DNA from: Eubacteriales bacterium
GTDB taxonomy: Bacteria; Bacillota; Clostridia; Christensenellales; Aristaeellaceae
DNA length: 64,000 bases
Assembly (NCBI GenBank): GCA_031556065.1
Contig: JAVBTR010000012.1
Location: forward strand, 31-64,030
Reading direction: 5' to 3'
The notes beneath the pieces are model-generated. The model had not been told where the DNA came from. It saw nothing but the letters and a program-made list of their open reading frames with translations, and made no database searches. A program made the translations under genes and the position numbers. Within the stretch, counting starts at the first letter, position 1. Each line of letters starts with the position of its first letter. Below, in pieces: positions 33,256-49,304 of the stretch.

Positions 33256-33331
33256 GGGAGCATAGCTCAGCTGGGAGAGCATCTGCCTTACAAGCAGAGG
33301 GTCACAGGTTCGAGCCCTGTTGTTCCCACCA
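33256..33331 (+). tRNA. tRNA-Val(TAC)
   Basis: It folds as a cloverleaf by hand. The acceptor is GGGAGCA/TGTTCCC, the anticodon loop is CTTACAA, the T-arm is GGTTCGAGCC, and CCA is encoded. Confidence 0.9.
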
Positions 33332-33335
33332 TTAT

Positions 33336-33412
33336 GGCCCGGTAGTTCAGTTGGTTAGAATGCCAGCCTGTCACGCTGGAGGTCGAGGGTTCGAGCCCCT
33401 TCCGGGTCGCCA
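33336..33412 (+). tRNA. tRNA-Asp(GTC)
   Basis: The acceptor is GGCCCGG/CCGGGTC, the anticodon loop is CTGTCAC, and CCA is encoded. Confidence 0.9.
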
Positions 33413-33418
33413 ATATTT

Positions 33419-33494
33419 GCCTCGGTAGCTCAGATGGTAGAGCAGTAGACTGAAAATCTACGTGTCGGTGGTTCGATTCCGCCCCGAGGCACCA
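33419..33494 (+). tRNA. tRNA-Phe(GAA)
   Basis: The acceptor is GCCTCGG/CCGAGGC, the anticodon loop is CTGAAAA, and CCA is encoded. Confidence 0.9.
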
Positions 33495-33499
33495 TGTGT

Positions 33500-33574
33500 G
33501 CGGTAGTAGCTCAGTGGTAGAGTGCCACCTTGCCAAGGTGGATGTCGCGAGTTCGAATCTCGTCTACCGCTCCA
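33500..33574 (+). tRNA. tRNA-Gly(GCC)
   Basis: The acceptor is GCGGTAG/CTACCGC, the anticodon loop is TTGCCAA, and CCA is encoded. Confidence 0.9.
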
Positions 33575-33579
33575 CACAC

Positions 33580-33654
33580 GGTGCCATAGCCAAGCGGTAA
33601 GGCGAAGGTCTGCAAAACCTTTATTCTCCAGTTCAAATCTGGATGGCACCTCCA
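33580..33654 (+). tRNA. tRNA-Cys(GCA)
   Basis: The acceptor is GGTGCCA/TGGCACC, the anticodon loop is CTGCAAA, and CCA is encoded. Confidence 0.9.
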
Positions 33655-33662
33655 GAAAGAAT

Positions 33663-33688
33663 AAACCCGCTTGGTGCGGGTTTTTCTT
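33663..33688 (+). terminator. Rho-independent terminator after the five-tRNA cluster
   Basis: AAACCCGC-ttggt-GCGGGTTT followed by a T run. Confidence 0.7.
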
Positions 33689-33702
33689 TTCCTTTTTCTC
33701 TC

Positions 33703-33789
33703 GCTGCTGTGATGGAATAGGCAGACATAACAGACTTAAAATCTGTCGGTGGAAACACCGTGCCGGTTCGACCCCGGCCAGCAGCACCA
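33703..33789 (+). tRNA. tRNA-Leu(TAA), long variable arm
   Basis: The acceptor is GCTGCTG/CAGCAGC, the anticodon loop is CTTAAAA, and the variable arm is CGGTGGAAACACCG. CCA is encoded. A compound hairpin follows at 33798-33849. Confidence 0.85.
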
Positions 33790-33992
33790 AACCAATATAA
33801 TCCGAACCAATCCCGACAGATAATACCTGTTGGCGAAGGGTTCGGATTATTAGTTTATTTCGAGTATGGTTTCTTCCCTAATGGGGTAAAGCAAAGGGCG
33901 GAGTCAAAACCCAGAGGGCCGAGAAAAAAGAAAAGAACTGAATAGACAGAAAAAAGGGGCACTGGCATCATTGCGATACCAGTGCCCTGCTG

Positions 33993-34181
33993 TCAATTAT
34001 TCTTTTTCTTCTCTTTTCTAACCGTATCCATTTCTTGCTGCTGCTTCCACTCGGCAAATTCTTTTTGCCCTTCCTCGCTCTCGAAAAGAGCAAGAACATC
34101 GGGCATAATACAACGAGCGATGGCTTCAATTTTGTATTGTGGAATGTTGGTGTTGTTAATAATCTTCTTGCGCCGTCCCAT
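33993..34181 (-). CDS. Small island-backbone protein (62 aa), unknown function
   Basis: The start MGRRKKIINNTNIPQYKIEAIARCI follows GGAGG at 6 nt. A hairpin GGGCACTGG/CCAGTGCCC lies downstream of the stop. Confidence 0.5.
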   Translation of the reverse strand: MGRRKKIINNTNIPQYKIEAIARCIMPDVLALFESEEGQKEFAEWKQQQEMDTVRKEKKKNN

Positions 34182-34284
34182 GATTTTCCTCCGTATGTAG
34201 TTTTCAAGGTACAAAGTCTTGAAATCTCACTTTCATAAATATTGGGGTAATAAAAAACCACGCCTCATTTCTGATAGCGTGGAG

Positions 34285-35124
34285 CTAATGTTGCTCATAT
34301 TCGATAAACGCTTTCTTGATTGCGCTCATCCGTTTTAGTACACCGCTGTGATTCTTGTATCCCATCACGTTGGCGATTTGCTCATAGGTGAATCCTTGTA
34401 TTCGATAATCTAGTATCTCCATATCCCGTGGCAAGAGCTGCAATCTGAAGCGTCGATAGAAGTCATCGGCTACAACCTGTTCAACGAAGTGCGATGAAGG
34501 ATCAGCCAATGCATGGATTCCATTCCCGACATCTTCGATGCTGCCTTCCAATGATACCATCTGCACTTTTTTAGATCGGGTGTGATACCACTTGCGAAGG
34601 AAATCTTTGCGAACGTTGGTGTTCCAGTTTTCAAAATCTTCATCGCAAGGCATTTCCCGCACAACATCAAGCGTGGGTTGCCAGCCTTCTTCTTGAATGG
34701 CACGTTTTACGATTCGTCCCATTACTTCTTCAATGTAATCAGACGTGAAGAACGGAATGGTTTCAACGCTTGGAATATAGAAAAGCCGTTGCAAACCCCA
34801 CCCGGTTTCTGCCTCCAACAATCTTGCCCAAATAGGTAACATATAGCACAGCTTCCATACCGGGCAATAGCCTGTGTAATGTTCTTTCCAACCACTAAAG
34901 CCGAAGTGCGGAAAAACCATTGCCGCACTTGCATCGGTAATCTCGCTAAAGAAGGCATCGCTGTTCACGACTGCCATCATTTCTTCGGAGTACACTACTT
35001 CTCTCACTTTTCGTGGTAAAGAATAAAGCGTTGGGCACTTTTTAATTAAATCTTGCGGCAGGAAATATACTAATGGTAAATAAAGCAGATTGCTGTCTGC
35101 GGATATTTGCAATAAGCTCATCAT
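34285..35124 (-). CDS. Protein with a C-terminal sigma-70 region 4 / LuxR-like HTH
   Basis: The C-terminus is LLPRDMEILDYRIQGFTYEQIANVMGYKNHSGVLKRMSAIKKAF. AAGGAGG precedes the start. Confidence 0.6.
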   Translation of the reverse strand: MMSLLQISADSNLLYLPLVYFLPQDLIKKCPTLYSLPRKVREVVYSEEMMAVVNSDAFFSEITDASAAMVFPHFGFSGWKEHYTGYCPVWKLCYMLPIWARLLEAETGWGLQRLFYIPSVETIPFFTSDYIEEVMGRIVKRAIQEEGWQPTLDVVREMPCDEDFENWNTNVRKDFLRKWYHTRSKKVQMVSLEGSIEDVGNGIHALADPSSHFVEQVVADDFYRRFRLQLLPRDMEILDYRIQGFTYEQIANVMGYKNHSGVLKRMSAIKKAFIEYEQH

Positions 35125-35322
35125 TTCACCTCCTTAATTTTGAACTATACTTATATACGGCATAAATGCAAAGCAATTGTTCCAGATAGGCTGATTATAA
35201 CAAAATAAGCAATCAGAAACAAGCTGCTTTAATAGCACCCTTTGCATATTGTGCGAGTTGGAGAGTATTTGCAAGACACCTTCCAAGCATTTTCCTACAT
35301 GACACCTCGTGTATATTTTCTT

Positions 35323-35357
35323 TATTCGGTGCGAATTATGTAAAATTATGCTATAAT
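35323..35357 (+). promoter_or_regulatory. Candidate extended -10 promoter of the cargo operon
   Basis: TGcTATAAT, with the -10 at 35352-35357. The -35 is weak (TGCGAA). Confidence 0.35.
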
Positions 35358-35492
35358 GGCAAAGATAATAATTTGGCAGTCAGCAATTAATATAAGCTAT
35401 GCTGCTCGCAAGTTAATTGGAGAAACATTTCACACAACTACAGAGTGGTTATCAGCCAGAACATGCTTTGTTTCGAAAGGAGCCGAGACCAA

Positions 35493-36917
35493 ATGCGCAA
35501 GGCATATGATACGATTTTACGATCCGAAGTGTCTGCTGAGTTGGTTGCAGAAGGCGGCGTATTTGATGAACCTTATCGTTTTGAGTGTGCTTGTTGCGGC
35601 GAAGAAGTTCGAATTGCCGCTGCTGAAAGTACTAAACAGACGGTTCACTTCAGACATCGTAGTGGCAATAATGATACTGAATGCGAAAACTATTTGGGGA
35701 AAAATATGCAAATAAGTATTGATTCCGCATCAAAGAAAAGCAATCGTGAAAGATTGGAATTTTACTTTGTTTACAGCAACAAGAATTTTTGCATGGGATT
35801 AAAGTTTACTGAGCAGGAACTTATGAATTATGAACAATGCTCAGCTTTATTTACATTGAGTGTAAGCGAGACGCAAGAGGCTTTTCGCACTTTGGAAATA
35901 AACCGCACTAATTTTTTTCCGGACGCTATGGAGTTAATTCCGTTGGGAACGTTTTCACACAGTTACTATTTAACTAATACATATGATAAAACTTGGCGAA
36001 AATACGATTTTATTAACATAGAGAATACCCCTGCATTTTTTAAAGTTTTAGGTGATGTTGCCAATTTCAAGGCACGCCTTGTGCAGGGTGATGTTATATA
36101 TACAAACACAAAGTACTTTGTTACTTTTCAAAATCAATATTACGAAAATCATTTCAGGTCTTTTTCAGTTGAAGATAAGTTCACGTTTGAGACTATGGGA
36201 AAGCAATTTACAGGTATCATTATAAGTTTTCCCCAAAAAAGTGAACGAATTGATGCCTTGATTGCTCCATGGGGATATAGACTCGAAAGTTCTGATACTT
36301 TAACATTATTGTGGCCTCCGGCGTCATCCGATGGTGATACCTCTTATATTTCTGGAGACAACGCCTTTATATACTCCACGTTTCGATTGCAAGCTCATGG
36401 AAACATCAATGTTAATCCAAGTGATGTTGTCAATATTACCGCTAATCTGTCAAAAGTGCTAATTCGCTCTACGACAAAGGTTTTCAGGAGAAACGCAGAA
36501 CTTACAATAAGTAATTGTGCATTGCCACTGTGCGCATTGGATAAGTTGGATGTATCAGAGGACTTGGCTGATTGTTTTGTTGCAAATGCTGAAAGCACTT
36601 GCTTTAGCTTTACTTCAGCAGGGGTATTGCCGCTAGATGCGGCAGCTTGGTTTTATCTTACACCAGAAGACGTGGTGCGAAAATACCAACATGGCTATTT
36701 GATTGGAGAGGTAAAATACCCTCCACAATCTGCGCCGAAGAAAAAAGAGTTGCTAAACGATTTGCTAAAGCATTATAAGCTGAATGAGCCATTTGTCAAA
36801 ACGCGATTGAATATGATTTCAATTAGCGAAACAGTGTCAGAATATCTCCTTTCTTGCGAAGAATCAGCGCAAATCAACTCTGCTGCAAAACGCTTTATTG
36901 AGGAGGGACGTCTGTGA
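35493..36917 (+). CDS. Cargo gene 1: unknown protein with a CoiA-like Cys/His N-terminal motif
   Basis: A 474-aa protein with AAAGGAG 10 nt before the ATG. The N-terminus is FECACCGEEVRIAAAESTKQTVHFRHRSGNNDTECENY (C-x2-C ... HFxH ... C). I recognise no domain in the rest. Confidence 0.75.
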   Translation: MRKAYDTILRSEVSAELVAEGGVFDEPYRFECACCGEEVRIAAAESTKQTVHFRHRSGNNDTECENYLGKNMQISIDSASKKSNRERLEFYFVYSNKNFCMGLKFTEQELMNYEQCSALFTLSVSETQEAFRTLEINRTNFFPDAMELIPLGTFSHSYYLTNTYDKTWRKYDFINIENTPAFFKVLGDVANFKARLVQGDVIYTNTKYFVTFQNQYYENHFRSFSVEDKFTFETMGKQFTGIIISFPQKSERIDALIAPWGYRLESSDTLTLLWPPASSDGDTSYISGDNAFIYSTFRLQAHGNINVNPSDVVNITANLSKVLIRSTTKVFRRNAELTISNCALPLCALDKLDVSEDLADCFVANAESTCFSFTSAGVLPLDAAAWFYLTPEDVVRKYQHGYLIGEVKYPPQSAPKKKELLNDLLKHYKLNEPFVKTRLNMISISETVSEYLLSCEESAQINSAAKRFIEEGRL

Positions 36918-38872
36918 GCTATTTGCCTCTCTTGTCGGATGACGACATCCGTTTTGTTTGCTCAATAATTCCACATGAGGAAGTTATTCGCTATTTTTCA
37001 CGACATCCTAAAGACCTTGCTCAGATAAGGCCTGGCTTTCGGGCAAAGACGTTTAGCAAAAGTGATGTTAGCAAACTACTATTCAATTTCCAATCAAAAA
37101 ACTTTATACAGAACATTATCGAAAATTGGCTTGACTTTTGTCTGCGGGAAATAGAGAAATATTATAACAACTGCATAGCAGATGGTGATGACAAAGACGT
37201 GGCTCAATTAAAGACGCTATCCGGGTCTTTTTTCGCACCCAACATAGCTGTTTACTTTAAGCTTGTTGGAGAAGAACGTTCACAAAGGGAAATGGAGCTG
37301 CTTAGTGCATCTATTACGGCGATTCGAGAAAATAGCGAAAGCAACATAGTACAAAATCGAGAGCTAAAGTCAAAAGAAAAAGAGCTGCAACAAGAAAAGG
37401 ACAAGGCTGATGCACTTCATGAAAAATTGGAGAAGGCTACTGCAAGTCAACAAAGGAGAATTGCTGAAATTGTAGATCTCAAGCGTGAGTTAGCTGAACT
37501 TCATGATCTGAGGGGTAAAGTAGATAAGCAAAACAAAGATATCAGTTCGGCTAAAATGCTCGTAGAAGAAAAAGAAGCATGCATAGTCAAAATGAAACAA
37601 GAATTGAGTATATCTGCAAGTGAAATTGCAAATCTCAAAAGTGAACTCGGCAAAAATGCGATATTGCAGGCTGAAGTAATCGCCCTACGAAAAAAAGAGA
37701 GCTATATTACTCAACTTGAAGCGGATGTTATATTTTATCAAAATCAGAGTATGGATTGCGAAAAGCAACTTGAAAGGCTTTCGGACGATTTGGTTGAGTC
37801 ATCCAGTAAAATAACAAATCTCGAAGAAAAAGTTGCTGCAAACGCACAGCTTCAGGCTGAGATTTCTGAGCTGAGAAAATCTAAAGAGGGCATAACCGCC
37901 TTAAAAAGTGAACTGGAAAATTTAATTGAACGCAACAGAGTTTGCGAAGAACATGTGGAAAGACTAAAGATCGAGCTAGCGACTGCAATTTACAATGACG
38001 AGCAACGGCAAGAACAAGAAAAATCGTCTCGTGTCTTATCAAATGTAACATCCAGTGGAGCAATACATGTAGCACACAAACCACTAAAGCCGATCGAAAT
38101 GGCGCTCTTTACTGAGTATATTGGCTATAATCTTGAAAGCATAGGCATTCCAAGTGATGCAGAGGTGTTTAATTTGCTGATTAATCATTTGAGCAGAATT
38201 TGCTTTGGAGGAGTGCCGATTATCGCCAATCGCCTTACAGGTGCTGCTATCGCGAAATGTATTGCTAATGTGATTACAGGTGCGCCCGAAGTGAAAACAC
38301 TTCGGTATAAAAAAGAAATTTCCATTGAAGAAATCAGCGCTTTTTTTGAATCAAAAGAGCGGGTTGTTTGCCTTGACAATTTTGTTGGAAACTACAACGA
38401 AACAGAACTGCTACCCTTGTTTGAAGAGAATCGAAATAAAATTATTTTCCTGTTAACGGCTTATGATCGAACAGTAAATTATATATCAGAAGAATTTTTG
38501 CGTTACTGTCACTATTTAAACTTAAATCAACTCATTGCACGAATCCCTACGTTGGAGCTTTCTGAGGATTCCTCCACATTGGACGAGGGAGAATACTCTC
38601 CCGAAAGAACAGATGCAAACAATCGTTATGCAGACATAATGCGCAAAATTCTAAATGAAATCAATTACTGCAAAAGCATTATCGAAGAAAAATGCGCCGA
38701 GATTTCGAGTGAGCAAGAGTTGTGCGGATCATTAGCCTTTGATGTTTTACCATACTGTGTTGACGTGCTTCACATATCCCCATATAACAGTTCTGCACAC
38801 CTTGGCAGATATGCAGGAGTTGCGGGTAGATGTCCGCATCGCAAGTTGCTTAAGGAGTGGTTTGCGCTATGA
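36914..38872 (+). CDS. Cargo gene 2: long coiled-coil protein with a degenerate P-loop-like C-terminal domain
   Basis: The GTG start overlaps the upstream stop (GTGA). Residues about 135-370 are heptad-rich and E/K/L/Q-rich, with a duplicated unit of about 62 aa. The C-terminus carries VPIIANRLTGAAIAKC ... VVCLDNF ... IIFLLTAYD. Confidence 0.75.
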   Translation: MSYLPLLSDDDIRFVCSIIPHEEVIRYFSRHPKDLAQIRPGFRAKTFSKSDVSKLLFNFQSKNFIQNIIENWLDFCLREIEKYYNNCIADGDDKDVAQLKTLSGSFFAPNIAVYFKLVGEERSQREMELLSASITAIRENSESNIVQNRELKSKEKELQQEKDKADALHEKLEKATASQQRRIAEIVDLKRELAELHDLRGKVDKQNKDISSAKMLVEEKEACIVKMKQELSISASEIANLKSELGKNAILQAEVIALRKKESYITQLEADVIFYQNQSMDCEKQLERLSDDLVESSSKITNLEEKVAANAQLQAEISELRKSKEGITALKSELENLIERNRVCEEHVERLKIELATAIYNDEQRQEQEKSSRVLSNVTSSGAIHVAHKPLKPIEMALFTEYIGYNLESIGIPSDAEVFNLLINHLSRICFGGVPIIANRLTGAAIAKCIANVITGAPEVKTLRYKKEISIEEISAFFESKERVVCLDNFVGNYNETELLPLFEENRNKIIFLLTAYDRTVNYISEEFLRYCHYLNLNQLIARIPTLELSEDSSTLDEGEYSPERTDANNRYADIMRKILNEINYCKSIIEEKCAEISSEQELCGSLAFDVLPYCVDVLHISPYNSSAHLGRYAGVAGRCPHRKLLKEWFAL

Positions 38873-39888
38873 ATGAACTTTTAAAAGCAATGTCAACCGA
38901 TATGAGAATCAAACGTTATCAAAATGAAACGGAGGATTCGTTTGCCTATCGCTTATGCTATTCGGCTTTAGGACAATGGTGTTTACGGCTGGCGCAAAAC
39001 ACTTATGACGGTGCTATAGGCACTTCAAAGCATAGCCAAACCATTATACTTAACGAATTGATCGCAAGATTTATTGAGCTGTTTCCTTATCTTGAGGAAA
39101 AGCTTATCGATGGTAGCGGAAAGAATGATAGCATTTCTGTTCACATACGAAAAGTCTATGAAGAAACAGGTTATTTACTTACTTCTGATACCAACCGAAA
39201 CAGGATAGCTAACTACGGCAGAAGCATTGCTGTTGGACATGCAAATCTGTTTTTCGGACTCCCTTCATCGAGCTATACCGTAAATGGGTTGGGTGTATTA
39301 ACTCCTTCTCCTGCACACAACGTTACATCGAGGGAGTTTCTTATAAGGGACAATCTATCTTGGAAAAAATATTTTCAGGCACAGTTTGACAATGTTGAGT
39401 TTGGCGATAGAGATATCGATATTACGCAACTCGAATTTTTCGATCCACAGTCGCACAAATCTCCTTCGTCATCGTGGAGAAAGTCGATTACAACAAGCTG
39501 CACTATCGCACGAGGTGGCGAATTCGGCCCTTTCTATAAGGTGAAGCAGATGACCAATGGATCCTTTTTATTTGCTGACGAACCGATAATTACACAATCG
39601 GATGCTTTTACTTCGTATGAGTACAGACGCTTGTACTTTGCACTTAAGGCACAATACGGGGCTCCGCTTATTGCTTATATCAGTAGACACGATTCGGATT
39701 ATGCGACGGTTAGATTAAGCGGGCTCTTGCCCAATCGTGAATATTATTACATATTATTGCTGGCATGGCCTCAAAACACTTTTTATAACAAAGCAGGCTT
39801 TATTATTAGAACGGACTTATTGCCAGAACTATCAACGGTACTAATTAATCTAGGAATAAAGATAGAAAGCGAGGGCGCATATGCATAA
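38869..39888 (+). CDS. Cargo gene 3: unknown 339-aa protein
   Basis: It shares an ATGA overlap with gene 2. I recognise no motif. Confidence 0.7.
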
Positions 39889-42800
39889 TTCAAGCAGTGT
39901 TCAAGTGTACTATCAAACTATTCGTGATAGGTTGAAAAACTACATTAAATCGGACTATTTGGCTAATAGCGAAACGTTGCTTATGTATGTTGATGATCTA
40001 TTAGGAGAAAACTGCTCTCCATATGCCAACATTGCGCGTGAACCATATATCGAAACATCCGCTTCCTATAAAAAAATTCAAAACGGGATTGCAAACTCTC
40101 AGCTGATTGAAGATTCTATTAAAGAATCTCTGCTTAAGCTTGTTGAGGAGAAGCTTGGCGTTTTTGCTGATCCGTTTGAGCATCAGGTGCAAGCACTTGA
40201 ATATTTTTTGGCAGGACGAGATATGTTTGTATCAACTGGAACAGGTTCTGGCAAAACCGAATGCTTCTTGTGGCCTATTATAGCAAAATGCTTCGCTGAA
40301 GCAAAAACACACCCTAATAGTTTTAATAAAGAAGGCGTGCGGACTCTTATTATCTATCCTATGAACGCACTTGTATCTGATCAATTGGCTAGATTCAGAA
40401 AAATTATCGGTAGTGAAGAATTTAAAGATATCTTTACAGAAGATACATTGGCAACTCGCATTCCGCATTTCGGCATGTATACAGGCAGAACTCCTTACGC
40501 CGGAAAGCCAAAGACTGCCAGCAACAAAGAGCTGGCAGCTACATTTCGAGAAAGTTACCTGGTGGATGAGGAAGCGGATAATCAAACTCAAGAGCGACAA
40601 CGTAATAATATTAACGGATTGAAAAGTATCAATAAGTACCCAGCTAGATTTGGAGAAAACGGTCTTGAAAAATTTATTGATGATTTGGAACGGAACATAC
40701 ATAAACCAGCTTCTTTTGACGCTGAATTTATTACCAGATTCGAGATGCAAAGGTGTCCGCCGGATATACTGATAACGAACTATTCCATGCTGGAATATAT
40801 GCTCATGCGTCAACGCGAGACGGGTATTTGGGATAAGACAAAAGAGTGGCTTAACGAATCACAAGACAATCGTTTGCTTATTGTTTTGGATGAGGCACAT
40901 ATGTATCGGGGCGCTGCTGGTGGCGAAATAGCGTTGCTGTTAGAACGTTTATTCTATCGCCTTGGAATTTCACGAGACAAAGTCCAGTTCATCCTTACTA
41001 CTGCCAGTATGCCGCAAGATGATCAGAAAGCAATAGATGCATTTTACACTGGGCTTACGCAGAAAGAGCCTTCTCACTATGAATTCATTGATGGATCGAA
41101 AGAGGAAATTGCAAGTGAGGCTGAAATCAAAACCAATGTGGCTGCGCTGGCATCAGTTGGATCGGAACAGGTATATGGCGAGAGTATTGCCGAAAAAATA
41201 AGAGTTTTTTCGCACGCTGTTTTTGGACATATTCTTCCCGAAACCATCAGTTCAAAGCAGGCACAAGCTTGGTTATATGATAACCTCGCAAGATATGATG
41301 CATTTCTCCAATTGAATAAGGTGTGCCGTGACGGGGCTACGTCATACAGTGAAATAAAGAACAGGCTTTTTGGGGAGGCAACCGACTCTGAAGCCGCACT
41401 GGATGCTTTGTTAGCTATCGTAGCTCTTGCTGAGAAGAATGGTAACATCCTATTTCCTGTGCGTCTGCATATGTTTTTGAGAGGACTTCAGGGCCTATTT
41501 GCATGTTCAAACCCCAAATGCGTTCACGCAAAGTACTCGAGTGAAGAACAGCTGCCGCTAGGAAAGGTAACCTCAGTGCCACGAGATAAGTGTGAATGTG
41601 GTGCACGAGTTTATGAGCTTGTTAATCATATAAAATGCGGCGGACTTTATTTGCGCGTTTTTGTTCAAAAGAACGAAGGCAGTCCTTACTGGTATGTCTT
41701 TCCGCAAAAAGGAATAAGCGGAGATGTGAACTCACTTAATGAAATGCTTCTATACGTGGTTCCAAAGAACTATCAAAAAGGACGAAATGATAATATTGGC
41801 TCGCTTGATCCCTTAACAGGAAAATTGTACATTTCGCCCCAATCTGATGATAAATTACTAACAGTAATTTATAGCAATAACTTTGATACCAAGTTGCAGT
41901 CCTTTAATTTCAATGTATGCCCGAAGTGCAAAAAGAAAATGAGCTTAAAAAAGCCTGCCGACTTGGCAACGAAAGGCAATATTCCTTTCTACAATCTGAC
42001 AAAAGCGCAGTTTGAGTTGCAACCTCCCAAATCAAATCTAATTAATCAAGGAAAAAAGGTATTACTCTTCTCGGACTCGCGCCAAAACGCAGCGAAGCTT
42101 GCACTGGACTTGTCGAAATCATCAGATGCAGATGCTTTCCGCCAAGCAATCATACTAGCTTCTTTGCTCTTGCAAAATGATGAAAAGGAGCATACTTTAG
42201 CAGATATATATCCTGCTTTCTTAGAAGTGTGTATAGAAAACAAACTGAATTTTTTCAGTGGGATAAGTAACGAAAAATTCGTTCAAGACAAGAACCTCTT
42301 TGAGGGGCATAAGCGTCGCATGATGCGCCGTGGAAACGAGAATGATTCTTCGGAACTGGCAGCAAAATATCAATCGTTGCCCGATGAATATCACGAACAA
42401 CTATTGACCTTTTTTACAGAAAGCCCGCGATCTTTCAAAGACATTGGAATTGGTTTCTTGGCGCCGACGGTCAATGCGCTGGAAGATTGTAGTTTTGACT
42501 TGGAAGAAGACGGAATAGTCATAGACAAAGATATTCTTTATCAGCTTCTTGTTCTTCTTTTTTGGGATGTAATGGATGACAGTGCGGCCTTGGGTGAGAA
42601 TATCCCGGATGACATTCGAAAGGGATTACCCGGACGCAGTAAAGAACGTGAATTTGGGCTAAGCAGCACTTTCACAACAGCATTAGATAGCAAATTTCTT
42701 CAGCGGGGCAAGGAGATTCTTAATCTTAATAGCGATGCAATGTTGGAGAAAGTAATCAATAAGATACGTGATTTGTTTTTCTCGACATCACGAATAAGTC

Positions 42801-45115
42801 GTTATTACATTAAACTTGGGGCTGTAAAAATCGAGTTTGCAAACAAAGATTTTACGTGGTATCGTTGCTTAAAGTGTGGGAAACTATCGCCATTCAAAAT
42901 TGGCAACCATTGTGGGGCCTGTTTCGAATCAACGGATGTGAAGCCGATTGGAGAGGATGACCTCTCACGTTTTGATTTCTGGCGAAAACCAGTTTTGGAT
43001 GCATTGAATAAAAGTGTAAGCATCCATACAATTGATACTGAAGAACATACTGCGCAACTGTCGCACAAGGAAGTGCATAACGATGCTTGGAGTCGCACGG
43101 AAAAATATGAAATGCGGTTTCAAGATATTAGTGCTGGTGAAAATGGAGAGGAATCGATAGATGTGTTGAGTTGCACCACCACAATGGAGGTTGGTATCGA
43201 CATCGGTTCTTTGACAGCTGTCGGGCTTCGTAACATTCCGCCAATGCGAGAAAACTATCAACAGCGTGCAGGACGCGCAGGACGTAAGAATGCCGGAATT
43301 TCTACTATAGTAACTTATGCTTCCGGGGGTGTTCATGACAGCTATTATTTTTTGCACCCTGATGAAATGATATCTGGATCGCCTCGAAAACCGTGGATAG
43401 ATCGAGACAATCTCAAGATAAAGCAACGCCATATTAATATGTTGTCGTTGAACAAATTTTTATCTACGCCGAATATGAGTTGCCAGTTTGATGGCATCCT
43501 TGACATAGGCATTATTACATTCTGTGAAAAATATGGGCAGAACTTTATCGAATGTACCGAAGCTTTTGCAACAGAATCGGGATTTTCATCCGAAACAACA
43601 ATTCGTCAATTTGCTATGATATCTCGCGACGTTTTAGATGAAAGTAAGAGGAATGAATACATTAACAATGAAAAAGAAACATCTGCATTTGATGTGTTCT
43701 ATCGTGAAGGCTTTATTCCGTCATATTCATTCCCTAAAAATGTAGTACGCTTTTTTGTGGAAAAAGAGTCTTCTCGTGGTAAAAATGCTCCGCGGGATAT
43801 TCAGTATGCTCCTGACAGAGATATATCTGTTGCCCTTAGCGAGTATGCTCCGGGACGATTTGTGTGCATTGATAAGAAGACATACAAAAGCGGCGGCTTA
43901 TATGCTAATCCACGGCCGAAAGGTTTTGAAAAAAATCAAGCTGAATACTATTTTTCAAACAAAGAGTATTGTAAAGATATTTTCGTTTGCACAGAATGCA
44001 ATTGGTTTGGCTTGAAGGTAGAAGAAACGTCAAATATGGCTTGCCCGTACTGTGGTGCTGCTGTTGCAAAAAGCACCATGCTTCGCCCTTGGGGTTTTTC
44101 GGCAGTTAAAGGTGATGAGCAAAAGTACGAAGATGAAGATGAACAGTATACGTACGCAGAAGCCCCATTTTATTCATATGTACCGGATGATTATCCAAGA
44201 GATATTTTTGAAGGAAGCAATATTCATTATGCAAATCTCCCTGATAAAGACGTATTAACCGTTAACATGGGGAAAAGCAAAAATGGTTTTAATGTGTGCA
44301 GAAAATGTGGTGGCGCAGAAGTTAGAAATCCTAATTCAAATGGAGATTACTCATTTTCCCAGCCTTACCATGATCCCCATCTTTGTCGGCATGAAGGTAC
44401 TGTGTCGTCAGGAATTTACCTTGGATATCAGTTTTTAACCGATATGTTCATGTTGGATATTTCTTACGATTCAAACAAGCTGGTCGGTAATGCCAGTGTA
44501 GAAGAGAAAAGTATATTACGGTCGGCAGCGACTACCTTGCATGAAGCATTAAAAAAAGCTGTTTCATTAGTTTTGGATATAGATTACAATGAAATTGCAG
44601 GCGGTTGGCGACCTAGAATAAAGAGCGATGGTTCATCACACATTGAAATGTTCTTTTATGACAACCTTATTAGCGGTGCTGGCTACTCGTCGCTAATTGG
44701 TTCTATTCTTGAAAAGGTGCTTGATAGCGCAAAAACGATTTTATCTGAATGTGAATGTTCACGTTCATGCAAAAACTGCATCGATAATTATTGGAATCAG
44801 CGAAACCATCAATTGTTTGATAGAAAGTTGGGGCTCCAGTTGCTTGAATATGCACGTTACAAACAGTTGCCCAACCGCTATTCCGTTGAGGAGCAGAAGG
44901 TATATCTTGCACCATTGTGGAAATTAATATCAGAGGACGGCAGTACGGTAAAGTCTGATCATCAAATTGATTTTGAAGTTATTCCTGCGCTTTTGAAAAA
45001 GCCTGAAAGCACAAAGATCAAAATCTATTTGAATCCCTACGATTTGTCGGACTGGCTTCCGAATGCGTTTATGACGTATAGAAGTCTTGTTTCTGGAGGA
45101 ACGTCAAATGGCTAA
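39881..45115 (+). CDS. Cargo gene 4: 1744-aa DEAH-box SF2 helicase fused to a DUF1998/MrfA-type zinc-binding C-terminal domain (DruE-like)
   Basis: Motif I is GTGSGKT (40238-40258), motif II is DEAH (40889-40900) and motif III is TTAS. Motif IV is [11 protein letters not shown] (from 42056), motif V is [11 protein letters not shown] and motif VI is [10 protein letters not shown] (43259-43288). The DUF1998 hallmarks are SEYAPGRFV and [25 protein letters not shown] (Cys cluster at 44750-44779). Confidence 0.9.
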
Positions 45116-45947
45116 ATCACTTTCACCGCTTCGATATCCAGGCGGCAAGTCAAAGATATACGAAAAGGTGAAAAACTTAATAGAGATTAATGCTTTTGGA
45201 AACAGGACCTATGTTGAACCTTTTGCGGGAGGGTTTGGTATTGGTATTGGACTACTTTGCGATAATACTGTGCAAACGGCAGTTCTCAACGATTTTGATA
45301 CACATATTTATAATTTTTGGTATGCTATATTGCACCACACCGAAGAGTTGAACAGGTTGATAACTGAAACGCCAATTACACTGGACGAACGTGAGAATCA
45401 AAAGCATGTTTATGAAGCCGAGGTTGATGATGCCCTTGCTGATGGGTTTGCCACATTGTTTCTTAATCGTGTTAATTTCTCAGGTGTATTTAATGGCGGT
45501 CCTATTGGTGGCTATTCGCAGACTGGAACATATAGACTTGATTGCCGCTTTAACAAAAATGATATTATTAAGCGGATTGAACAGGTTGCCCTACTTGCTA
45601 ATCGCATTGATTTATACAATTTAGAGGCGAGCGAACTGATTACTGTCCAATTGCAAAATACGATTAGAACGTCTTTTTTCAATATCGATCCGCCATATGT
45701 CGAAAAGGGACAGCGATTGTATAAAAATTATTTCCTTGAAGAAGACCATCGAGCACTTGAACGGATAATTGCTCAGTACTTGATAGATACACGATGGATT
45801 GTAACGTATGATGATTGCGAGCTGGTAAGAGATATCTATAGCGCTTATACGACTGTTGGGTATGATATTCAACACAATGTTGGTGCTAGTAAAAATGGCA
45901 AAGAGATCGTGATAACAAACATTCCTGTTGATACGTTTAGCTGGTAA
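45108..45947 (+). CDS. Cargo gene 5: Dam-class (D12, alpha-type) N6-adenine DNA methyltransferase
   Basis: LRYPGGKSK, an AdoMet motif [10 protein letters not shown], and the catalytic DPPY (45687-45698). The start has GGAGGA 7 nt upstream and overlaps the helicase gene stop by 8 nt. Confidence 0.88.
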
Positions 45948-46008
45948 CATAAATGATCGAGGCTACTATCATTGGGTGATGAATAGTTTCACATTGCGAA
46001 AACAACAT

Positions 46009-46312
46009 ACAATACTGGCAAGCAGGGCAAGTGGCATGCCACATTGCAAAACTGCTTGTTGGTGACAGCGTCCCCAAACCCCTTTGAACATAGAATTGAT
46101 TTCTATGGCTACGCACTTTTTTCAAAAGTACTACATCTTCGGGTTGAATTTTTCGCTCAAGTTTTGCTTTTTGCTCTCGGCAAATGAATAGCACTTTTGA
46201 AAAAAGTGCGTAGCCGCAAAATGAAATTTTGCGTTTGATTAGGGGTTTGGGGCTTTGCCTCAACAAGCAAAATGCAAAAGTGTCATAACACTTGCCCTGC
46301 TTGCCAGTATTG
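46009..46312. repeat. About 300-bp imperfect inverted duplication (two arms of about 135 bp)
   Basis: The outer 23 bp are perfect (CAATACTGGCAAGCAGGGCAAGTG vs CACTTGCCCTGCTTGCCAGTATTG). Further matching blocks are CCCCAAACCCCT/AGGGGTTTGGGG and GGCTACGCACTTTTTTCAAAAGT/ACTTTTGAAAAAAGTGCGTAGCC. Each arm also has its own small hairpins. Confidence 0.8.
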
Positions 46313-46322
46313 AACCAACTAT

Positions 46323-46360
46323 GAAAAAAGCCCACACGATTTTGCATTCGTGCGGGCTTT
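46323..46360 (-). terminator. Rho-independent terminator after tnpV (minus strand)
   Basis: AAGCCCGCACG-loop-CGTGTGGGCT followed by TTTTTT on the minus strand. Confidence 0.7.
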
Positions 46361-46363
46361 CCA

Positions 46364-46717
46364 TTATGCGTAGACGATTTCTTTTAGAATAATTTCTTCG
46401 GCGCAAGACTTGATGTTGTTCATTGCACCGACCCATGCCATTTGATCTTTTGCCTTTAACTCTTCGGTGATGCCTTGAATTTTTTGCATCTGTTGAATCG
46501 TGTTTGAAAGTTGTTCGTTGGCTTGCCGATCGGTTTCAACAAGATGCTCATGCAACTTGAAGGATAAAAACAAAGTGGCGTAGATGACTGGGCGATGATC
46601 TTCGAGATACTTTTTGCGAAGCCTTCCGTATTTACCGATAGGGGTTGTATTTTGCTCAGGAAAGATAAAATCAGGGACGAGATAGTCACCGTTTTGAATG
46701 TAGCTGATTTTATTCAT
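46364..46717 (-). CDS. tnpV: TnpV-family transposon-associated protein
   Basis: NGDYLVPDFIFPEQ...IGKYGRLRKKYLEDHRPVIY...GITEELKAKDQMAWVGAMNNIKSCAEEIILKEIVYA matches my recollection of the TnpV family. Confidence 0.75.
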   Translation of the reverse strand: MNKISYIQNGDYLVPDFIFPEQNTTPIGKYGRLRKKYLEDHRPVIYATLFLSFKLHEHLVETDRQANEQLSNTIQQMQKIQGITEELKAKDQMAWVGAMNNIKSCAEEIILKEIVYA

Positions 46718-47000
46718 AATCGTTTACCACCTCTCCGCAATTGTTAAACGTTTCTGACATGAGCATGACACCGAAACGGAGCCCGTAGGTAAATTTTTGA
46801 TATTGTGTTATGCCGTCAATTTCAGCTTGGGCGTCGTTGAATTTCTGAAATATTACTTTCTCATTTTCGTTCAGCGTTAAAAGTAATTCTTTGCGGTTAT
46901 TCTCCCGTAGCTGTACAAGTTGAACGTAGGGTGAATTTTGATCGTAGACTTTACCGTCTGCACGAATATTGCCGTAATAGAGCTCCTCTAAAATCTTCAT
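46710..47000 (-). CDS. Island-backbone hypothetical protein (DUF6809-like, usual neighbour of tnpV)
   Basis: It has an MKILEELYYGNI N-terminus and overlaps the tnpV start. Confidence 0.6.
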   Translation of the reverse strand: MKILEELYYGNIRADGKVYDQNSPYVQLVQLRENNRKELLLTLNENEKVIFQKFNDAQAEIDGITQYQKFTYGLRFGVMLMSETFNNCGEVVNDYE

Positions 47001-47141
47001 AAAAGTTTCCTTTCTTCTTGTGAGTGCGACAATGCTTGAAAGGAACTTAGGCGCATGATATAATATTTACGCCGTAATTGCCTTGGCAGTTGTCGGTGTC
47101 GGGAAGTAGCGTGATTCTTTGCGGGAGAGCGCTGCTTCCTT

Positions 47142-47303
47142 TTACTTTTTCAGATCGCCGTAAATACGATCAATCCCTTGGCGAATAATCTCTGATTTTG
47201 TGACCTTGAACGTTTCGCTACATTCCTTGAGCTTCTCGTCTGTTTGAACATCAATCCTAATTCTCAGAGAAATATCCTTGGGACTTTCGGTTGGGCGACC
47301 CAT
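47142..47303 (-). CDS. Small ribbon-helix-helix (CopG/MobC-like) protein, absent from the supplied ORF track
   Basis: My manual translation is MGRPTESPKDISLRIRIDVQTDEKLKECSETFKVTKSEIIRQGIDRIYGDLKK (53 aa). An alternative TTG start at 47318 lies just after GAGGTGA. Confidence 0.6.
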   Translation of the reverse strand: MGRPTESPKDISLRIRIDVQTDEKLKECSETFKVTKSEIIRQGIDRIYGDLKK

Positions 47304-47399
47304 CTTTTTGGCAGGCAAGTCATCACCTCACTTTTGTATCGCCAAATCTATTGTACATTATGGATACACAAAAGTCAACCACCAAAACCTTAAATGGGG

Positions 47400-47428
47400 T
47401 TGAAAATAGTCAAATTATGGGTTAAAAT
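47400..47428 (+). promoter_or_regulatory. Candidate promoter for the XRE-recombinase pair
   Basis: TTGAAA (47400-47405), a 17-nt spacer, then TAAAAT (47423-47428). Confidence 0.4.
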
Positions 47429-47457
47429 AAATTCAACAAACTAGGAGGTGCTCACTA

Positions 47458-47817
47458 ATGAAAGAAGTGGGGATACGTTTGAAAACTTTGCGTGAAAGCG
47501 CAATGCTTTCGCAAGCGAAGATGGCAGAGATTTTTGAATCTACCCAATCCAGTATCAACCGTTATGAAAATGGACAATCGACCCCGACTGTTGCGCTATT
47601 TCGTGCATATGCAAATTACTTCGATGTGTCTATGGATTATATATTTGCTCGAACCGATAAGCCCCAAGGCGAGTTGTACGAATACAAGCCGAATATCGCT
47701 ACTGATAATCCTCAGATGCGCCAGTTTATTGATATGTGTTTTGATCCCAACTCACCCGTGAGCGGGAAGTTGAAAGATACATTGTTGCAGATGATGAAAG
47801 GCGATGAGAAAAAATGA
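47458..47817 (+). CDS. XRE-family HTH regulator
   Basis: IRLKTLRESAMLSQAKMAEIFESTQSSINRYENGQSTP. AGGAGG lies upstream, and the gene overlaps the recombinase start (ATGA). Confidence 0.8.
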   Translation: MKEVGIRLKTLRESAMLSQAKMAEIFESTQSSINRYENGQSTPTVALFRAYANYFDVSMDYIFARTDKPQGELYEYKPNIATDNPQMRQFIDMCFDPNSPVSGKLKDTLLQMMKGDEKK

Positions 47818-49304
47818 AAGCAGTCATCTATGCACGCTATTCCTCCGATAGCCAGCGTGAAGAATCCATCGAAGGACAGCTCCGTGAATGTGCCGCCTTT
47901 GCTGAAAAGAACGGCATTACTATCTTGCGAAATTATATTGACCGTGCTTTCTCTGCCAAGACGGACAACCGCCCGGAGTTCCAAAACATGATTAAGGATA
48001 GCGGCAAAAAGTTATTTGATATGGTCATTGTTTGGAAGTTGGATCGCTTTGCACGCAATCGCTATGACAGTGCAAGATACAAATCCATCTTAAAGAAAAA
48101 TGGTGTGAAGGTTGTGTCTGCCACCGAAGTCATTTCTGACGGTGCAGAAGGCATTATTCTGGAATCGGTTCTTGAAGGCTATGCGGAATACTATTCTGCT
48201 GATCTATCCGAGAAGGTCATTCGCGGCATGACCGAGAACGCCTTGAAGGGCAAGTTCAATGGTGGTTCACTTCCGATAGGATATGTGATTGACGAGGAAC
48301 GACATTTTCAAATCGATCCATTGACCGCACCTTTTATCTTAGAAGCGTATAAGCGATATGACGAAGGGGGAACCATGACCAACATCCGAGATTGGCTAAA
48401 TGCAAAAGGCGTTACCAACAAGTTCGGTGGGGGCTTAACCTATAATAGCGTTCAATTGTTGTTGCACAATCGCCGTTACATTGGTGAGTTCAAATATAGA
48501 GATATTCTCTTGCCCAGTGCCATCCCTGCCATCGTGCCAAAAGAATTGTTTGACCGTGTACAAGCGAAGATGGAGAAAAACAAAAAAGCCCCAGCCCGTC
48601 ATAAGGCTGAGGACGATTATCTGCTAACAACGAAACTTTTCTGCGGTCATTGTGGGGCATATCTATGTGGAGAAAGCGGGACGGGGCGCTCTCATGTATA
48701 TCATTATTATAAGTGCGTCAATGTTAAAAAGAGCAAAACCTGCAAAAAGAAACCAGTTCAAAAAGACTGGATAGAAAACTTGGTTATTGACGAAACGGTG
48801 AATATGATCACAGATGACAAGACGGTTGAAGCCATCGTTTCAATGGTGATGGATTTGCAAGAGCGTGAAAATACAAGTTTGCCGCTATTTGAACAGCAAT
48901 TGCAGGACACCAACTTCGGCATTCAAAACATCCTCAACGCCATTCAGCAGGGTATCTTGACCAAATCCACCAAGAGCCGCCTTGATGAGCTGGAAGCGGT
49001 CAAAGAAGATTTGGAAATCAAGATTGCCAACGAAAGCCTTGCCAAGCCCAAGCTAAATGCAGATTTCGTGAAGTTTTGGCTACGCCGATTCCGCAAACTG
49101 GATACACGAAAGAAAGAGCATAGAATGATGTTGATTGATTCGTTTGTTAATGCGATCTTTCTCTATGACGATAAAGTGGTTATTACATTCAATTATAAGG
49201 ATGGCACGAAAACAATCACCCTTGGTGATGTAAAAGGTTCGGATTTGGAATGCTCTGGGGCACCATCAAGAGTTATCAAACTCAATACAAAGAGGTCTTC
49301 GTGA
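47814..49304 (+). CDS. Large serine recombinase
   Basis: The resolvase catalytic N-terminus is MKAVIYARYSSDSQ...WKLDRFARN. A recombinase domain and a zinc ribbon (CGHCGAYL...YHYYKC) follow, then a C-terminal coiled coil. Confidence 0.92.
   Translation: MKAVIYARYSSDSQREESIEGQLRECAAFAEKNGITILRNYIDRAFSAKTDNRPEFQNMIKDSGKKLFDMVIVWKLDRFARNRYDSARYKSILKKNGVKVVSATEVISDGAEGIILESVLEGYAEYYSADLSEKVIRGMTENALKGKFNGGSLPIGYVIDEERHFQIDPLTAPFILEAYKRYDEGGTMTNIRDWLNAKGVTNKFGGGLTYNSVQLLLHNRRYIGEFKYRDILLPSAIPAIVPKELFDRVQAKMEKNKKAPARHKAEDDYLLTTKLFCGHCGAYLCGESGTGRSHVYHYYKCVNVKKSKTCKKKPVQKDWIENLVIDETVNMITDDKTVEAIVSMVMDLQERENTSLPLFEQQLQDTNFGIQNILNAIQQGILTKSTKSRLDELEAVKEDLEIKIANESLAKPKLNADFVKFWLRRFRKLDTRKKEHRMMLIDSFVNAIFLYDDKVVITFNYKDGTKTITLGDVKGSDLECSGAPSRVIKLNTKRSS

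Follow-up and report, generated by a model that had tools for sequence, protein, structure and literature searches.

On the evidence of its protein sequences, a five-gene operon in the 64-kb stretch of DNA analysed here (the window) is a sub-lineage of Druantia type I and not an undescribed defence system. This window-type sub-lineage is distinct, occurs mostly in Bacillota, and joins a four-gene core of DruB-, DruC-position, DruD- and DruE-type proteins to a D12 adenine DNA methyltransferase. Probably, the locus is an intact, DruA-less anti-phage system of the type I lineage, carried as island cargo, that would combine self-marking by m6A with attack by DruBCDE. The coupling of a D12 methyltransferase to the operon agrees with recent hints that adenine methylation is how type I Druantia distinguishes its own DNA from that of phages. 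Homology, gene order, operon coupling, co-occurrence statistics and the integrity of catalytic motifs were computed directly.

Operon organization and genomic context

The operon spans positions 35493–45947 on the plus strand (ORF calls). It comprises a druB-type gene (g1, 35493–36917, 474 aa) with an ATG start and AAAGGAG just upstream, a gene in the druC position (g2, 36914–38872, 652 aa), a druD-type gene (g3, 38869–39888, 339 aa), druE (g4, 39881–45115, 1744 aa) and the gene for the D12 adenine DNA methyltransferase (g5, 45108–45947, 279 aa). The longest ORF of g1 begins at a GTG at 35445. The original prediction described five overlap-coupled genes without gaps, and all four junctions read exactly as it proposed: GTGA at 36914–36917, ATGA at 38869–38872, ATGCATAA at 39881–39888, and the 8-nt overlap of the druE end with g5, ATGGCTAA, at 45108–45115. 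A purine-rich ribosome-binding site lies 5' of every one of these junctions. About 135 nt 5' of the g1 start codon, the sequence contains a candidate extended -10 element, TGcTATAAT (35349–35357, plus strand), which may act as a promoter element; its poor -35 hexamer kept it out of the output of a consensus promoter scan.

The GC profile, a tRNA scan and Pfam matches place the operon on a low-GC mobile island (33900–49304, left edge approximate), with a GC content of 0.38–0.42 across ~34–48 kb versus ~0.50 in the flanks. The island is inserted just downstream of a six-tRNA cluster (33256–33789, tRNA scan). The upstream neighbour of the operon is an HTH-ended ORF (34285–35124, minus strand), and Pfam identifies TnpV (46364–46717, minus), a DUF6809 protein (46710–47000, minus), an XRE HTH protein (47458–47817, plus) and a large serine recombinase of 496 aa (47814–49304, plus) as further island genes. 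The GC profile and the recombinase thus bear out the AT-rich serine-recombinase island described previously.

In total, 25 related loci emerged when the genomes of 185,579 species were scanned. The neighbourhood check proposed with the original prediction revealed a co-conserved four-gene core, with g1-g2-g3-g4 in the same order in 25/25 of these loci; in two of them (L017 and L021) the core is truncated.

Type I signatures in the core proteins

The g4 protein matches the PADLOC DruE1 model PDLC00013 with 1956 bits over residues 2–1737 (E 0), a score three times higher than with the DruE models of types II–IV (<=664 bits). With its Pfam DEAD, Helicase_C and MZB domains, it represents a YprA/MrfA-like SF2 helicase of the DEAH type that carries zinc ribbons and, at its C-terminus, an MZB/DUF1998 module, and it has the features of type I DruE, a large (about 1,700–2,100 aa) YprA-like helicase with DUF1998/MZB. 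The motifs GTGSGKT, DEAH, TAS and QRAGRAGR are conserved without exception across the family (22/22 members). Two ~2000-aa helicases (9wae, 9tu7) and YprA are the closest solved structures. Identity to canonical proteobacterial DruE is ~31%, and the canonical DruE proteins of Pseudomonas and Ralstonia match the same DruE1 model as g4.

Some members of the YprA/MrfA helicase family, to which DruE belongs, act in repair, and the operon might accordingly be read as a MrfA/YprA-type DNA-repair or chromosome-maintenance module and not as an immune system. We regard this as the least probable reading of all, given that the best matches are to defence-branch DruE models and not to MrfA, that the operon is situated on a mobile island and has relatives in differing surroundings, among them a Tn7-like element, and that a modification methyltransferase is linked to the operon.

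The reading as a Druantia type I lineage extends to g1 and g3, which the original prediction could not tie to DruB, DruC or DruD by any motif. Contrary to that view, both have full-length PADLOC matches: g1 to the DruB1 model PDLC00003 (E 8e-163; protein residues 1–474, model positions 1–477 of 477) and g3 to the DruD1 model PDLC00008 (E 9e-140; residues 1–336). A DruB upstream and a DruD directly upstream of DruE are type I features, and both are present. Alignment with the canonical proteins by hhalign is confined to one region each, comprising the N-terminal 56 columns for DruB (probability 82%, E 1e-5) and the C-terminal 123 columns for DruD (probability 63%, E 7e-5). The C-x2-C/HFxH N-terminus previously noticed in g1 was found again as a zinc-finger-like CxxC...HFRH motif, followed by a body rich in beta-sandwiches and, at the C-terminus, a helical domain. 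An AlphaFold2 model of g1 has a pLDDT of 75 (<50 for residues 1–86) and gave no structural neighbour in a search of the PDB. The g3 protein is an alpha/beta protein (AlphaFold2 pLDDT 86, pTM 0.86) for which Foldseek found no known structural relative in the PDB (best E 0.3) or BFVD (best E 0.06). At 90% identity, the g1 and g3 families contain 324 and 458 clusters, respectively.

A coiled-coil protein in the DruC position

The g2 protein consists of an N-terminal domain, a coiled coil (residues ~120–380) and a conserved C-terminal globular domain (residues 388–652). Two extra 62-aa units, the result of a duplication, distinguish its coiled coil from that of 528-aa relatives. The coiled coil, already recognized in the original prediction, matches SMC and JetC models, and beyond it no significant match was found in PADLOC, Pfam or NCBIfam. 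The degenerate P-loop-like domain that had also been suggested did not hold up, with no P-loop family match even at relaxed thresholds. The protein is strictly syntenic in 25/25 related loci. It has no direct match to the DruC model PDLC00006 (E 0.44), and hhalign aligned nothing between it and canonical DruC. Among ten distant relatives of its C-terminal domain, six match DruC1 models (E 1e-9 to 4e-5), partly in the coiled coil; for closer relatives, most matches are to generic coiled-coil models. Sequences intermediate between g2 and DruC score 99.4% against the g2 family and only 13% against canonical DruC in hhalign. The g2 protein thus appears to hold the DruC position and architecture and is tied to DruC only via intermediate sequences; homology is not established.

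These features of g2, together with the absence of DruA and the partial similarity of g1 and g3 to canonical DruB and DruD, would suit a categorically new defence system that has only a DruE-like helicase in common with Druantia, in line with the original prediction of a candidate undescribed system. This reading is very unlikely and, judging from the PADLOC matches, already largely refuted. PDLC00003 and PDLC00008 match g1 and g3 over their entire lengths, the DruE score singles out type I, the gene order is the canonical B-C-D-E, and intermediate sequences link g2 to DruC1 models. Profiling the five proteins with PADLOC accordingly assigned part of the set, namely DruB1, DruD1 and DruE1, to a described system.

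Druantia type I (Doron et al. 2018) reportedly comprises DruABCDE. The window locus resembles it in its kind of DruE, in the dedicated type I models that match its DruB and DruD, in the gene order B-C-D-E and in the N-domain, coiled-coil and C-domain layout of its slot-C protein. It differs in lacking DruA/DUF4338 and in having a druE-coupled D12 methyltransferase, in the alignment of its DruB and DruD with the canonical proteins over a single region each, and in a slot-C protein without a direct DruC model match.

An adenine methyltransferase coupled to druE

As predicted from its sequence, g5 is an intact Dam-class (D12) N6-adenine DNA methyltransferase. It matches Pfam MethyltransfD12 (PF02086, E 1.6e-20), the PADLOC models PD-Lambda-5_B (4e-98, the best named match) and MTase_II (1e-75), and, with 52 bits and under the model cut-off, the 'dam' model TIGR00571. 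D12 enzymes carry a MethyltransfD12 domain with a glycine-rich SAM loop and a catalytic DPPY motif, and g5 fits this description. The DPPY motif at residue 194 is intact in 20/20 family members, and 7m6b and DpnM are the solved structures closest to g5. The previous assignment to the Dam-class m6A enzymes, as opposed to the type II cytosine methylase DruM, was therefore correct. In Druantia type II, the C5-cytosine methylase DruM is partnered by DruF and DruG. Both type II and the window locus are DruE helicase operons that include a DNA methyltransferase; in the window locus, however, this enzyme is an N6-adenine D12 methylase, the match of DruE to type II models is limited to the low scores given above, and no model for DruM, DruF or DruG matches any of the five proteins.

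DISARM and ARMADA likewise combine a YprA-like DUF1998 helicase with a DNA methyltransferase whose presumed role is to mark self DNA. Their large PglX- or DrmMI/MII-type methyltransferases and SNF2/BrxHII helicases are, however, absent from the window locus, as is the PLD nuclease of DISARM. Matches of g4 to DrmA models are weak and cover only ~65 residues, all in its helicase C domain (E 4e-11), and PADLOC found no DrmB, DrmC, DrmD or DrmM among the five proteins.

A D12 methyltransferase occurs near the core in 20/23 judgeable related loci, a linkage that upholds the proposal of a subtype, which is genuine and conserved and does not reflect a chance association. A g5-type gene follows druE directly in the window and in 14 related loci, and in 13 of the latter the distance from the stop codon of druE to its start is -8 to +13 nt. 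A second D12 clade (~41% identity) accompanies the same core in six further loci, which implies repeated recruitment or replacement of the methyltransferase. The divergence of the methyltransferase follows that of DruE (Mantel r 0.53, p about 2e-4), and no family other than the methyltransferase recurs in the flanks of the related loci. The core lacks a D12 methyltransferase in the available sequence of three loci: L005, in which druE is frameshifted, and L024 and L025, in which the core is located amid housekeeping genes.

The latter two loci bear on a rival explanation, namely that the core is a methylation-independent Druantia and the methyltransferase an unrelated neighbour, either an orphan Dam or one half of a compact RM/PD-lambda-5-like system, brought together with it by defence-gene clustering. 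Type III Druantia acts independently of host methylation (type III literature), and a need for methylation is therefore not general among Druantia helicases. The best named match of g5 points in the same direction, as do two related loci in which the methyltransferase may belong to a separate system because it is paired with its own partner gene: L010 harbours both PD-Lambda-5 components, A and B, next to the core but on the other strand, and in L001 an AAA_15 ATPase comes after the methyltransferase. PD-lambda-5 (Vassallo et al. 2022) is a compact RM+Abi-like two-gene system with an A effector and a B methyltransferase, and g5 is a close family match to its B component. In contrast, the window methyltransferase is built into the dru operon, and neither PD-Lambda-5_A nor any other partner is found among the window neighbours or in the 14 loci whose methyltransferase adjoins druE directly. 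The tight spacing to druE in the 13 loci and its overlap in the window, the codivergence with DruE, the otherwise non-recurring flanks and the association of one core with two D12 clades also argue against an unrelated neighbour, which we consider unlikely.

Proposed mechanism

For an integrated system of core and methyltransferase, we infer defence activity, methylation-based self/non-self discrimination and the following subunit roles. The methyltransferase would write m6A at a short motif in host DNA as a self mark. DruB, DruC, DruD and DruE would form a complex built around DruE, which, by analogy with type III DruE, may act as a 3'-to-5' helicase loading at ssDNA or end-containing DNA. 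The type III enzyme unwinds DNA in the 3'-to-5' direction and needs ssDNA or a 3' overhang for loading (bioRxiv 10.64898/2026.05.13.724758; 10.64898/2026.05.12.722862). The complex would engage unmarked incoming or replicating phage DNA and unwind or clear it, with DruB (zinc finger and beta-sandwiches), the coiled-coil protein and DruD as putative recognition or regulatory subunits. Domain and structure searches of the operon proteins found no nuclease or methyl-reading domain; degradation, if any, would therefore be carried out by an unrecognised active site or by host nucleases.

In E. coli, canonical type I Druantia places m6A on host DNA at CAGCTGNC through a writer left unnamed, and a phage factor that alters phage m6A defeats type I Druantia (bioRxiv 10.1101/2024.04.14.589459). 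It is plausible that m6A serves as the self-discrimination mark in the window locus as well, in agreement with the m6A marking that this preprint describes for canonical type I.

Absence of DruA

A DruA HMM built from five canonical sequences recovers DruA in 7/7 canonical type I loci. Run at E <= 10 against six-frame translations of the entire 64-kb window and of the 25 related loci, this model detected no DruA (DUF4338), which confirms the suspected absence of DruA from the window. DruA models also failed to match the upstream neighbour (34285–35124) and three scanned genes 3' of g5. Conversely, no D12 methyltransferase is present in the canonical loci (0/7), and the D12 HMM matches window-type loci only. 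DruA and the D12 methyltransferase are thus mutually exclusive within this sample, a small table of two locus sets gathered with different queries.

A tentative and rather doubtful extension is that DruA and the Dam-class methyltransferase are interchangeable self-marking modules, in which case the natural exchange observed in the window-type loci would point to DruA (DUF4338, without methyltransferase motifs) as the m6A writer of canonical type I or as an essential cofactor. If true, all type I Druantia would represent a restriction-modification-like, methylation-gated helicase system with an exchangeable modification module.

The missing DruA might alternatively mark the locus as a decaying, non-functional type I remnant that has lost druA, and degraded relatives do exist, with the frameshifted druE of L005 and the truncated cores of L017 and L021. 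Decay is nevertheless highly improbable for the window locus: all five ORFs are full length with intact catalytic motifs, about 20 distantly related genomes retain the DruA-less architecture intact, and hundreds of clusters make up the partner families.

A DruA-less lineage of type I Druantia

The five-gene operon belongs to the Druantia type I lineage, lacks one of the features that define this type, the DUF4338 protein DruA, and has gained a Dam-class methylase. ORF calls and reading of the sequence agree on the predicted layout of five overlapping genes on the forward strand: g1 (35493-36917, 474 aa), g2 (36914-38872, 652 aa), g3 (38869-39888, 339 aa), g4 (39881-45115, 1744 aa) and g5 (45108-45947, 279 aa). 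At the junctions the sequence is, in order, GTGA, ATGA, ATGCATAA and ATGGCTAA, as predicted; each is preceded by a purine-rich ribosome-binding site, and g1 itself by a candidate extended -10 element (TGcTATAAT, 35349-35357).

The original prediction had proposed an undescribed defence system whose partner proteins could not be tied to Dru families. Neither claim survived comparison with the PADLOC models: g1 matches DruB1 (PDLC00003) over its full length (E 8e-163), g3 matches DruD1 (PDLC00008, E 9e-140), and g4 scores 1956 bits against DruE1 (PDLC00013), compared with at most 664 bits for the DruE models of types II to IV. Pfam assigns DEAD, Helicase_C and MZB/DUF1998 domains to g4, its helicase motifs I, II, III and VI are invariant among 22 family members, and its closest solved structures are YprA and two helicases of roughly 2000 aa. 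Canonical type I DruB, DruC and DruD from Pseudomonas and Ralstonia plasmids hit other sub-models (PDLC00005, 00006 and 00009), and DruE from the same plasmids hits the DruE1 model, as g4 does. Given these B and D sub-models and the shared DruE1 model, PADLOC already places the sub-lineage represented by g1-g5 in type I. The system itself is thus not new; for this variant we found no description in the searchable literature, the coverage of which is incomplete. Since PADLOC v2.0.0 holds sub-lineage models for DruB, DruD and DruE and none for the protein in the DruC position (slot C) or the methylase, automated annotation may call such loci incomplete. None of g1, g2 and g3 is covered by NCBIfam.

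Canonical DruE is ~31% identical to g4, and profile-profile alignment links canonical DruB to g1 solely via the N-terminal CxxC...HFxH region (probability 82%) and canonical DruD to g3 via the C-terminal 123 columns (probability 63%). The slot-C protein g2 shares with canonical DruC, whose coiled coil (residues 154-382) is likewise JetC-like, its position and its layout of N-terminal domain, coiled coil and C-terminal domain.

A search for the g2 family in one genome per species yielded 25 related loci; a further locus, L029, holds a g2 fragment only and was excluded from ORF maps. Hosts are mostly Bacillota, with Flavobacteriaceae, deltaproteobacterial and candidate-phylum MAGs also represented. 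Co-conservation of the operon genes in other genomes had been set beforehand as a check, and the order g1-g2-g3-g4 is kept in 25/25 loci. Across hosts of different phyla, DruE stands out by its high conservation, with 63-76% identity to the window protein, and the DruB, slot-C and DruD proteins reach only 33-60%. Such a pattern fits an operon that is often transferred horizontally and whose accessory subunits evolve faster. A Pfam survey of 99 flanking ORFs (97 from related loci, two from the window) revealed no recurrent extra partner other than RhuM-family proteins, which flank four related loci and are the sole family seen more than twice.

The accessory subunits

No direct match between g2 and DruC was found, either with the PADLOC models (E 0.44) or by hhalign against canonical DruC. 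An exhaustive profile search with the g2 C-terminal domain alone gathered 144 representatives. The ten remotest full-length sequences among them include six that hit DruC1 models (E 1e-9 to 4e-5); closer relatives mainly match generic coiled-coil models. In profile alignments, DruC-like intermediates reach 99.4% probability against the g2 family and only 13% against canonical DruC. We regard g2 and DruC as likely homologues. For the genomic context of the intermediates, two metagenome scans and tblastn against plasmids gave no match, and the g2 family profile retrieved only coiled-coil noise from PDB sequences. The first protein search with g2 had given at least 25 homologues, scored among the 8,000 candidates with most shared words, a list that we suspect was crowded by coiled-coil words, and this figure is no gauge of rarity. 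The g2 coiled coil (within 37463-37965) is 124 aa longer than in 528-aa relatives owing to two added 62-aa (186-nt) repeat units, which share 38% protein identity. Protein length in the family spans about 517-773 aa, suggesting that the coiled coil is a spacer of variable length.

The AlphaFold2 model of DruD (g3) is confident (pLDDT 86, pTM 0.86) and has no significant structural neighbour in Foldseek searches of PDB and BFVD, so that DruD may adopt a new fold. DruB (g1) was modelled at pLDDT 75 as mostly beta-sandwich with a low-confidence zinc-finger N-terminus; Foldseek found no significant neighbour in PDB, and the g1 family profile had no match among PDB sequences. Outside DruE and the methylase, the operon proteins yielded no nuclease, methyl-reader or P-loop domain, and relaxed Pfam scans of sub-domains added nothing beyond zinc-ribbon hints in DruE. 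The absence of an obvious nuclease, as originally noted, is borne out by Pfam, by these scans and by the Foldseek searches with the DruB and DruD models; the degenerate P-loop once ascribed to g2 was not assigned by the relaxed scans.

A methylase in place of DruA

A profile HMM for DruA, made from five canonical sequences, recovers DruA in 7/7 canonical type I loci from plasmids and finds none in the window, in line with the original prediction, or in any related locus (E <= 10). The HMM for D12 methyltransferases behaves in reverse, matching window-type loci and not the canonical ones. DruA and methylase are thus mutually exclusive in this small, non-randomly collected sample. DruA itself is not a recognisable methyltransferase, because hhalign found no profile similarity to the g5 family and a motif search found neither DPPY nor FxGxG.

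As predicted, g5 is a small Dam-class m6A enzyme: profile matches identify it as a D12-class N6-adenine methyltransferase with DPPY. Its best named match is PD-Lambda-5_B, a family that supplies the methylase in a compact RM+Abi-like system (PMC9519451). As in the window, a g5-type enzyme (54-72% identical) directly follows druE in 14 related loci (L002, L006, L007, L009, L011, L015, L017, L018, L021 as a remnant, L022, L023, L026, L027 and L028); in 13 of them its start lies at -8 to +13 nt relative to the druE stop. A second D12 clade (~41% identical) occurs downstream of the core after a 206-478 nt gap in L016 and L019 and upstream of it in L001, L010, L012 and L014. DPPY is intact in 20/20 complete methyltransferases. 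Two loci, L008 and L020, could not be judged, as their contigs end inside the core.

The main rival explanation treats the methylase as a neighbour that is independent of the dru core. It draws on loci without a D12 methyltransferase, namely L024 and L025, whose cores are surrounded by housekeeping genes, and L005. It is also favoured by two loci in which the methylase has its own partner: in L010 (5160-7883) the upstream enzyme belongs to a complete PD-Lambda-5 A+B pair encoded on the strand opposite the core, and in L001 (5294-7896) it is paired with an AAA_15 ATPase. This arrangement also hints at a single methylase serving two effectors. Against this rival speak the tight methylase-druE coupling, the co-divergence of methylase and DruE (Mantel r 0.53, p about 2e-4), the fact that two methylase clades were recruited, and the lack of any other partner.

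The best-supported model takes up the proposed m6A self-marking: g5 would place m6A on self DNA, and a DruBCDE complex would act against unmarked invading DNA via the helicase activity of DruE, with DruB, the slot-C protein and DruD possibly contributing recognition or regulation. The sole mechanistic lead on type I Druantia in the searchable literature, a 2024 preprint, reports that the canonical E. coli system, without a recognisable methylase, marks host DNA with m6A at CAGCTGNC and is defeated by a phage protein altering phage m6A (bioRxiv 10.1101/2024.04.14.589459). Type III Druantia is methylation-independent, and its DruE is a 3'-to-5' helicase that loads on ssDNA or 3' overhangs (bioRxiv 10.64898/2026.05.13.724758, 10.64898/2026.05.12.722862). 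The DruA-less sub-lineage with its Dam-class methylase provides independent comparative support for methylation-based self-recognition in type I and yields a concrete, testable hypothesis on the role of DruA. It also offers a simpler experimental model, combining a four-protein core with a standard methyltransferase whose motif is readable by methylome sequencing.

Mobility and decay

The operon stretch has a GC content of 0.38-0.42 between flanks of ~0.50. This low-GC stretch begins directly after six tRNA genes (Val, Asp, Phe, Gly, Cys and Leu; 33256-33789) and is terminated by genes for TnpV, DUF6809, a regulator of the XRE family and a large serine recombinase of 496 aa (46364-49304). These features identify the operon as cargo of a mobile island, in agreement with the AT-rich serine-recombinase island originally described. 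The terminal gene set resembles that of clostridial Tn4451-type mobilisable transposons. In L019 (4728-8250), the dru core and methylase lie directly downstream of Tn7-like TnsD/TniQ and TnsE-like genes, and the system is therefore also carried by a Tn7-like transposon. Decay is visible in some of the related loci: L005 (3636-9210) carries a frameshift in druE; L017 (9971-13076) has lost druB and has a truncated slot-C gene and druE beside an intact methylase; and in L021 (7636-12683) druE is broken and the methylase reduced to a remnant. Divergent from the dru operon lies a 279-aa ORF (34285-35124, reverse strand) for which Pfam, NCBIfam and PADLOC gave no match. The C-terminus of its product resembles sigma-70 region 4 or a LuxR-type helix-turn-helix, and it could be a regulator of the element.
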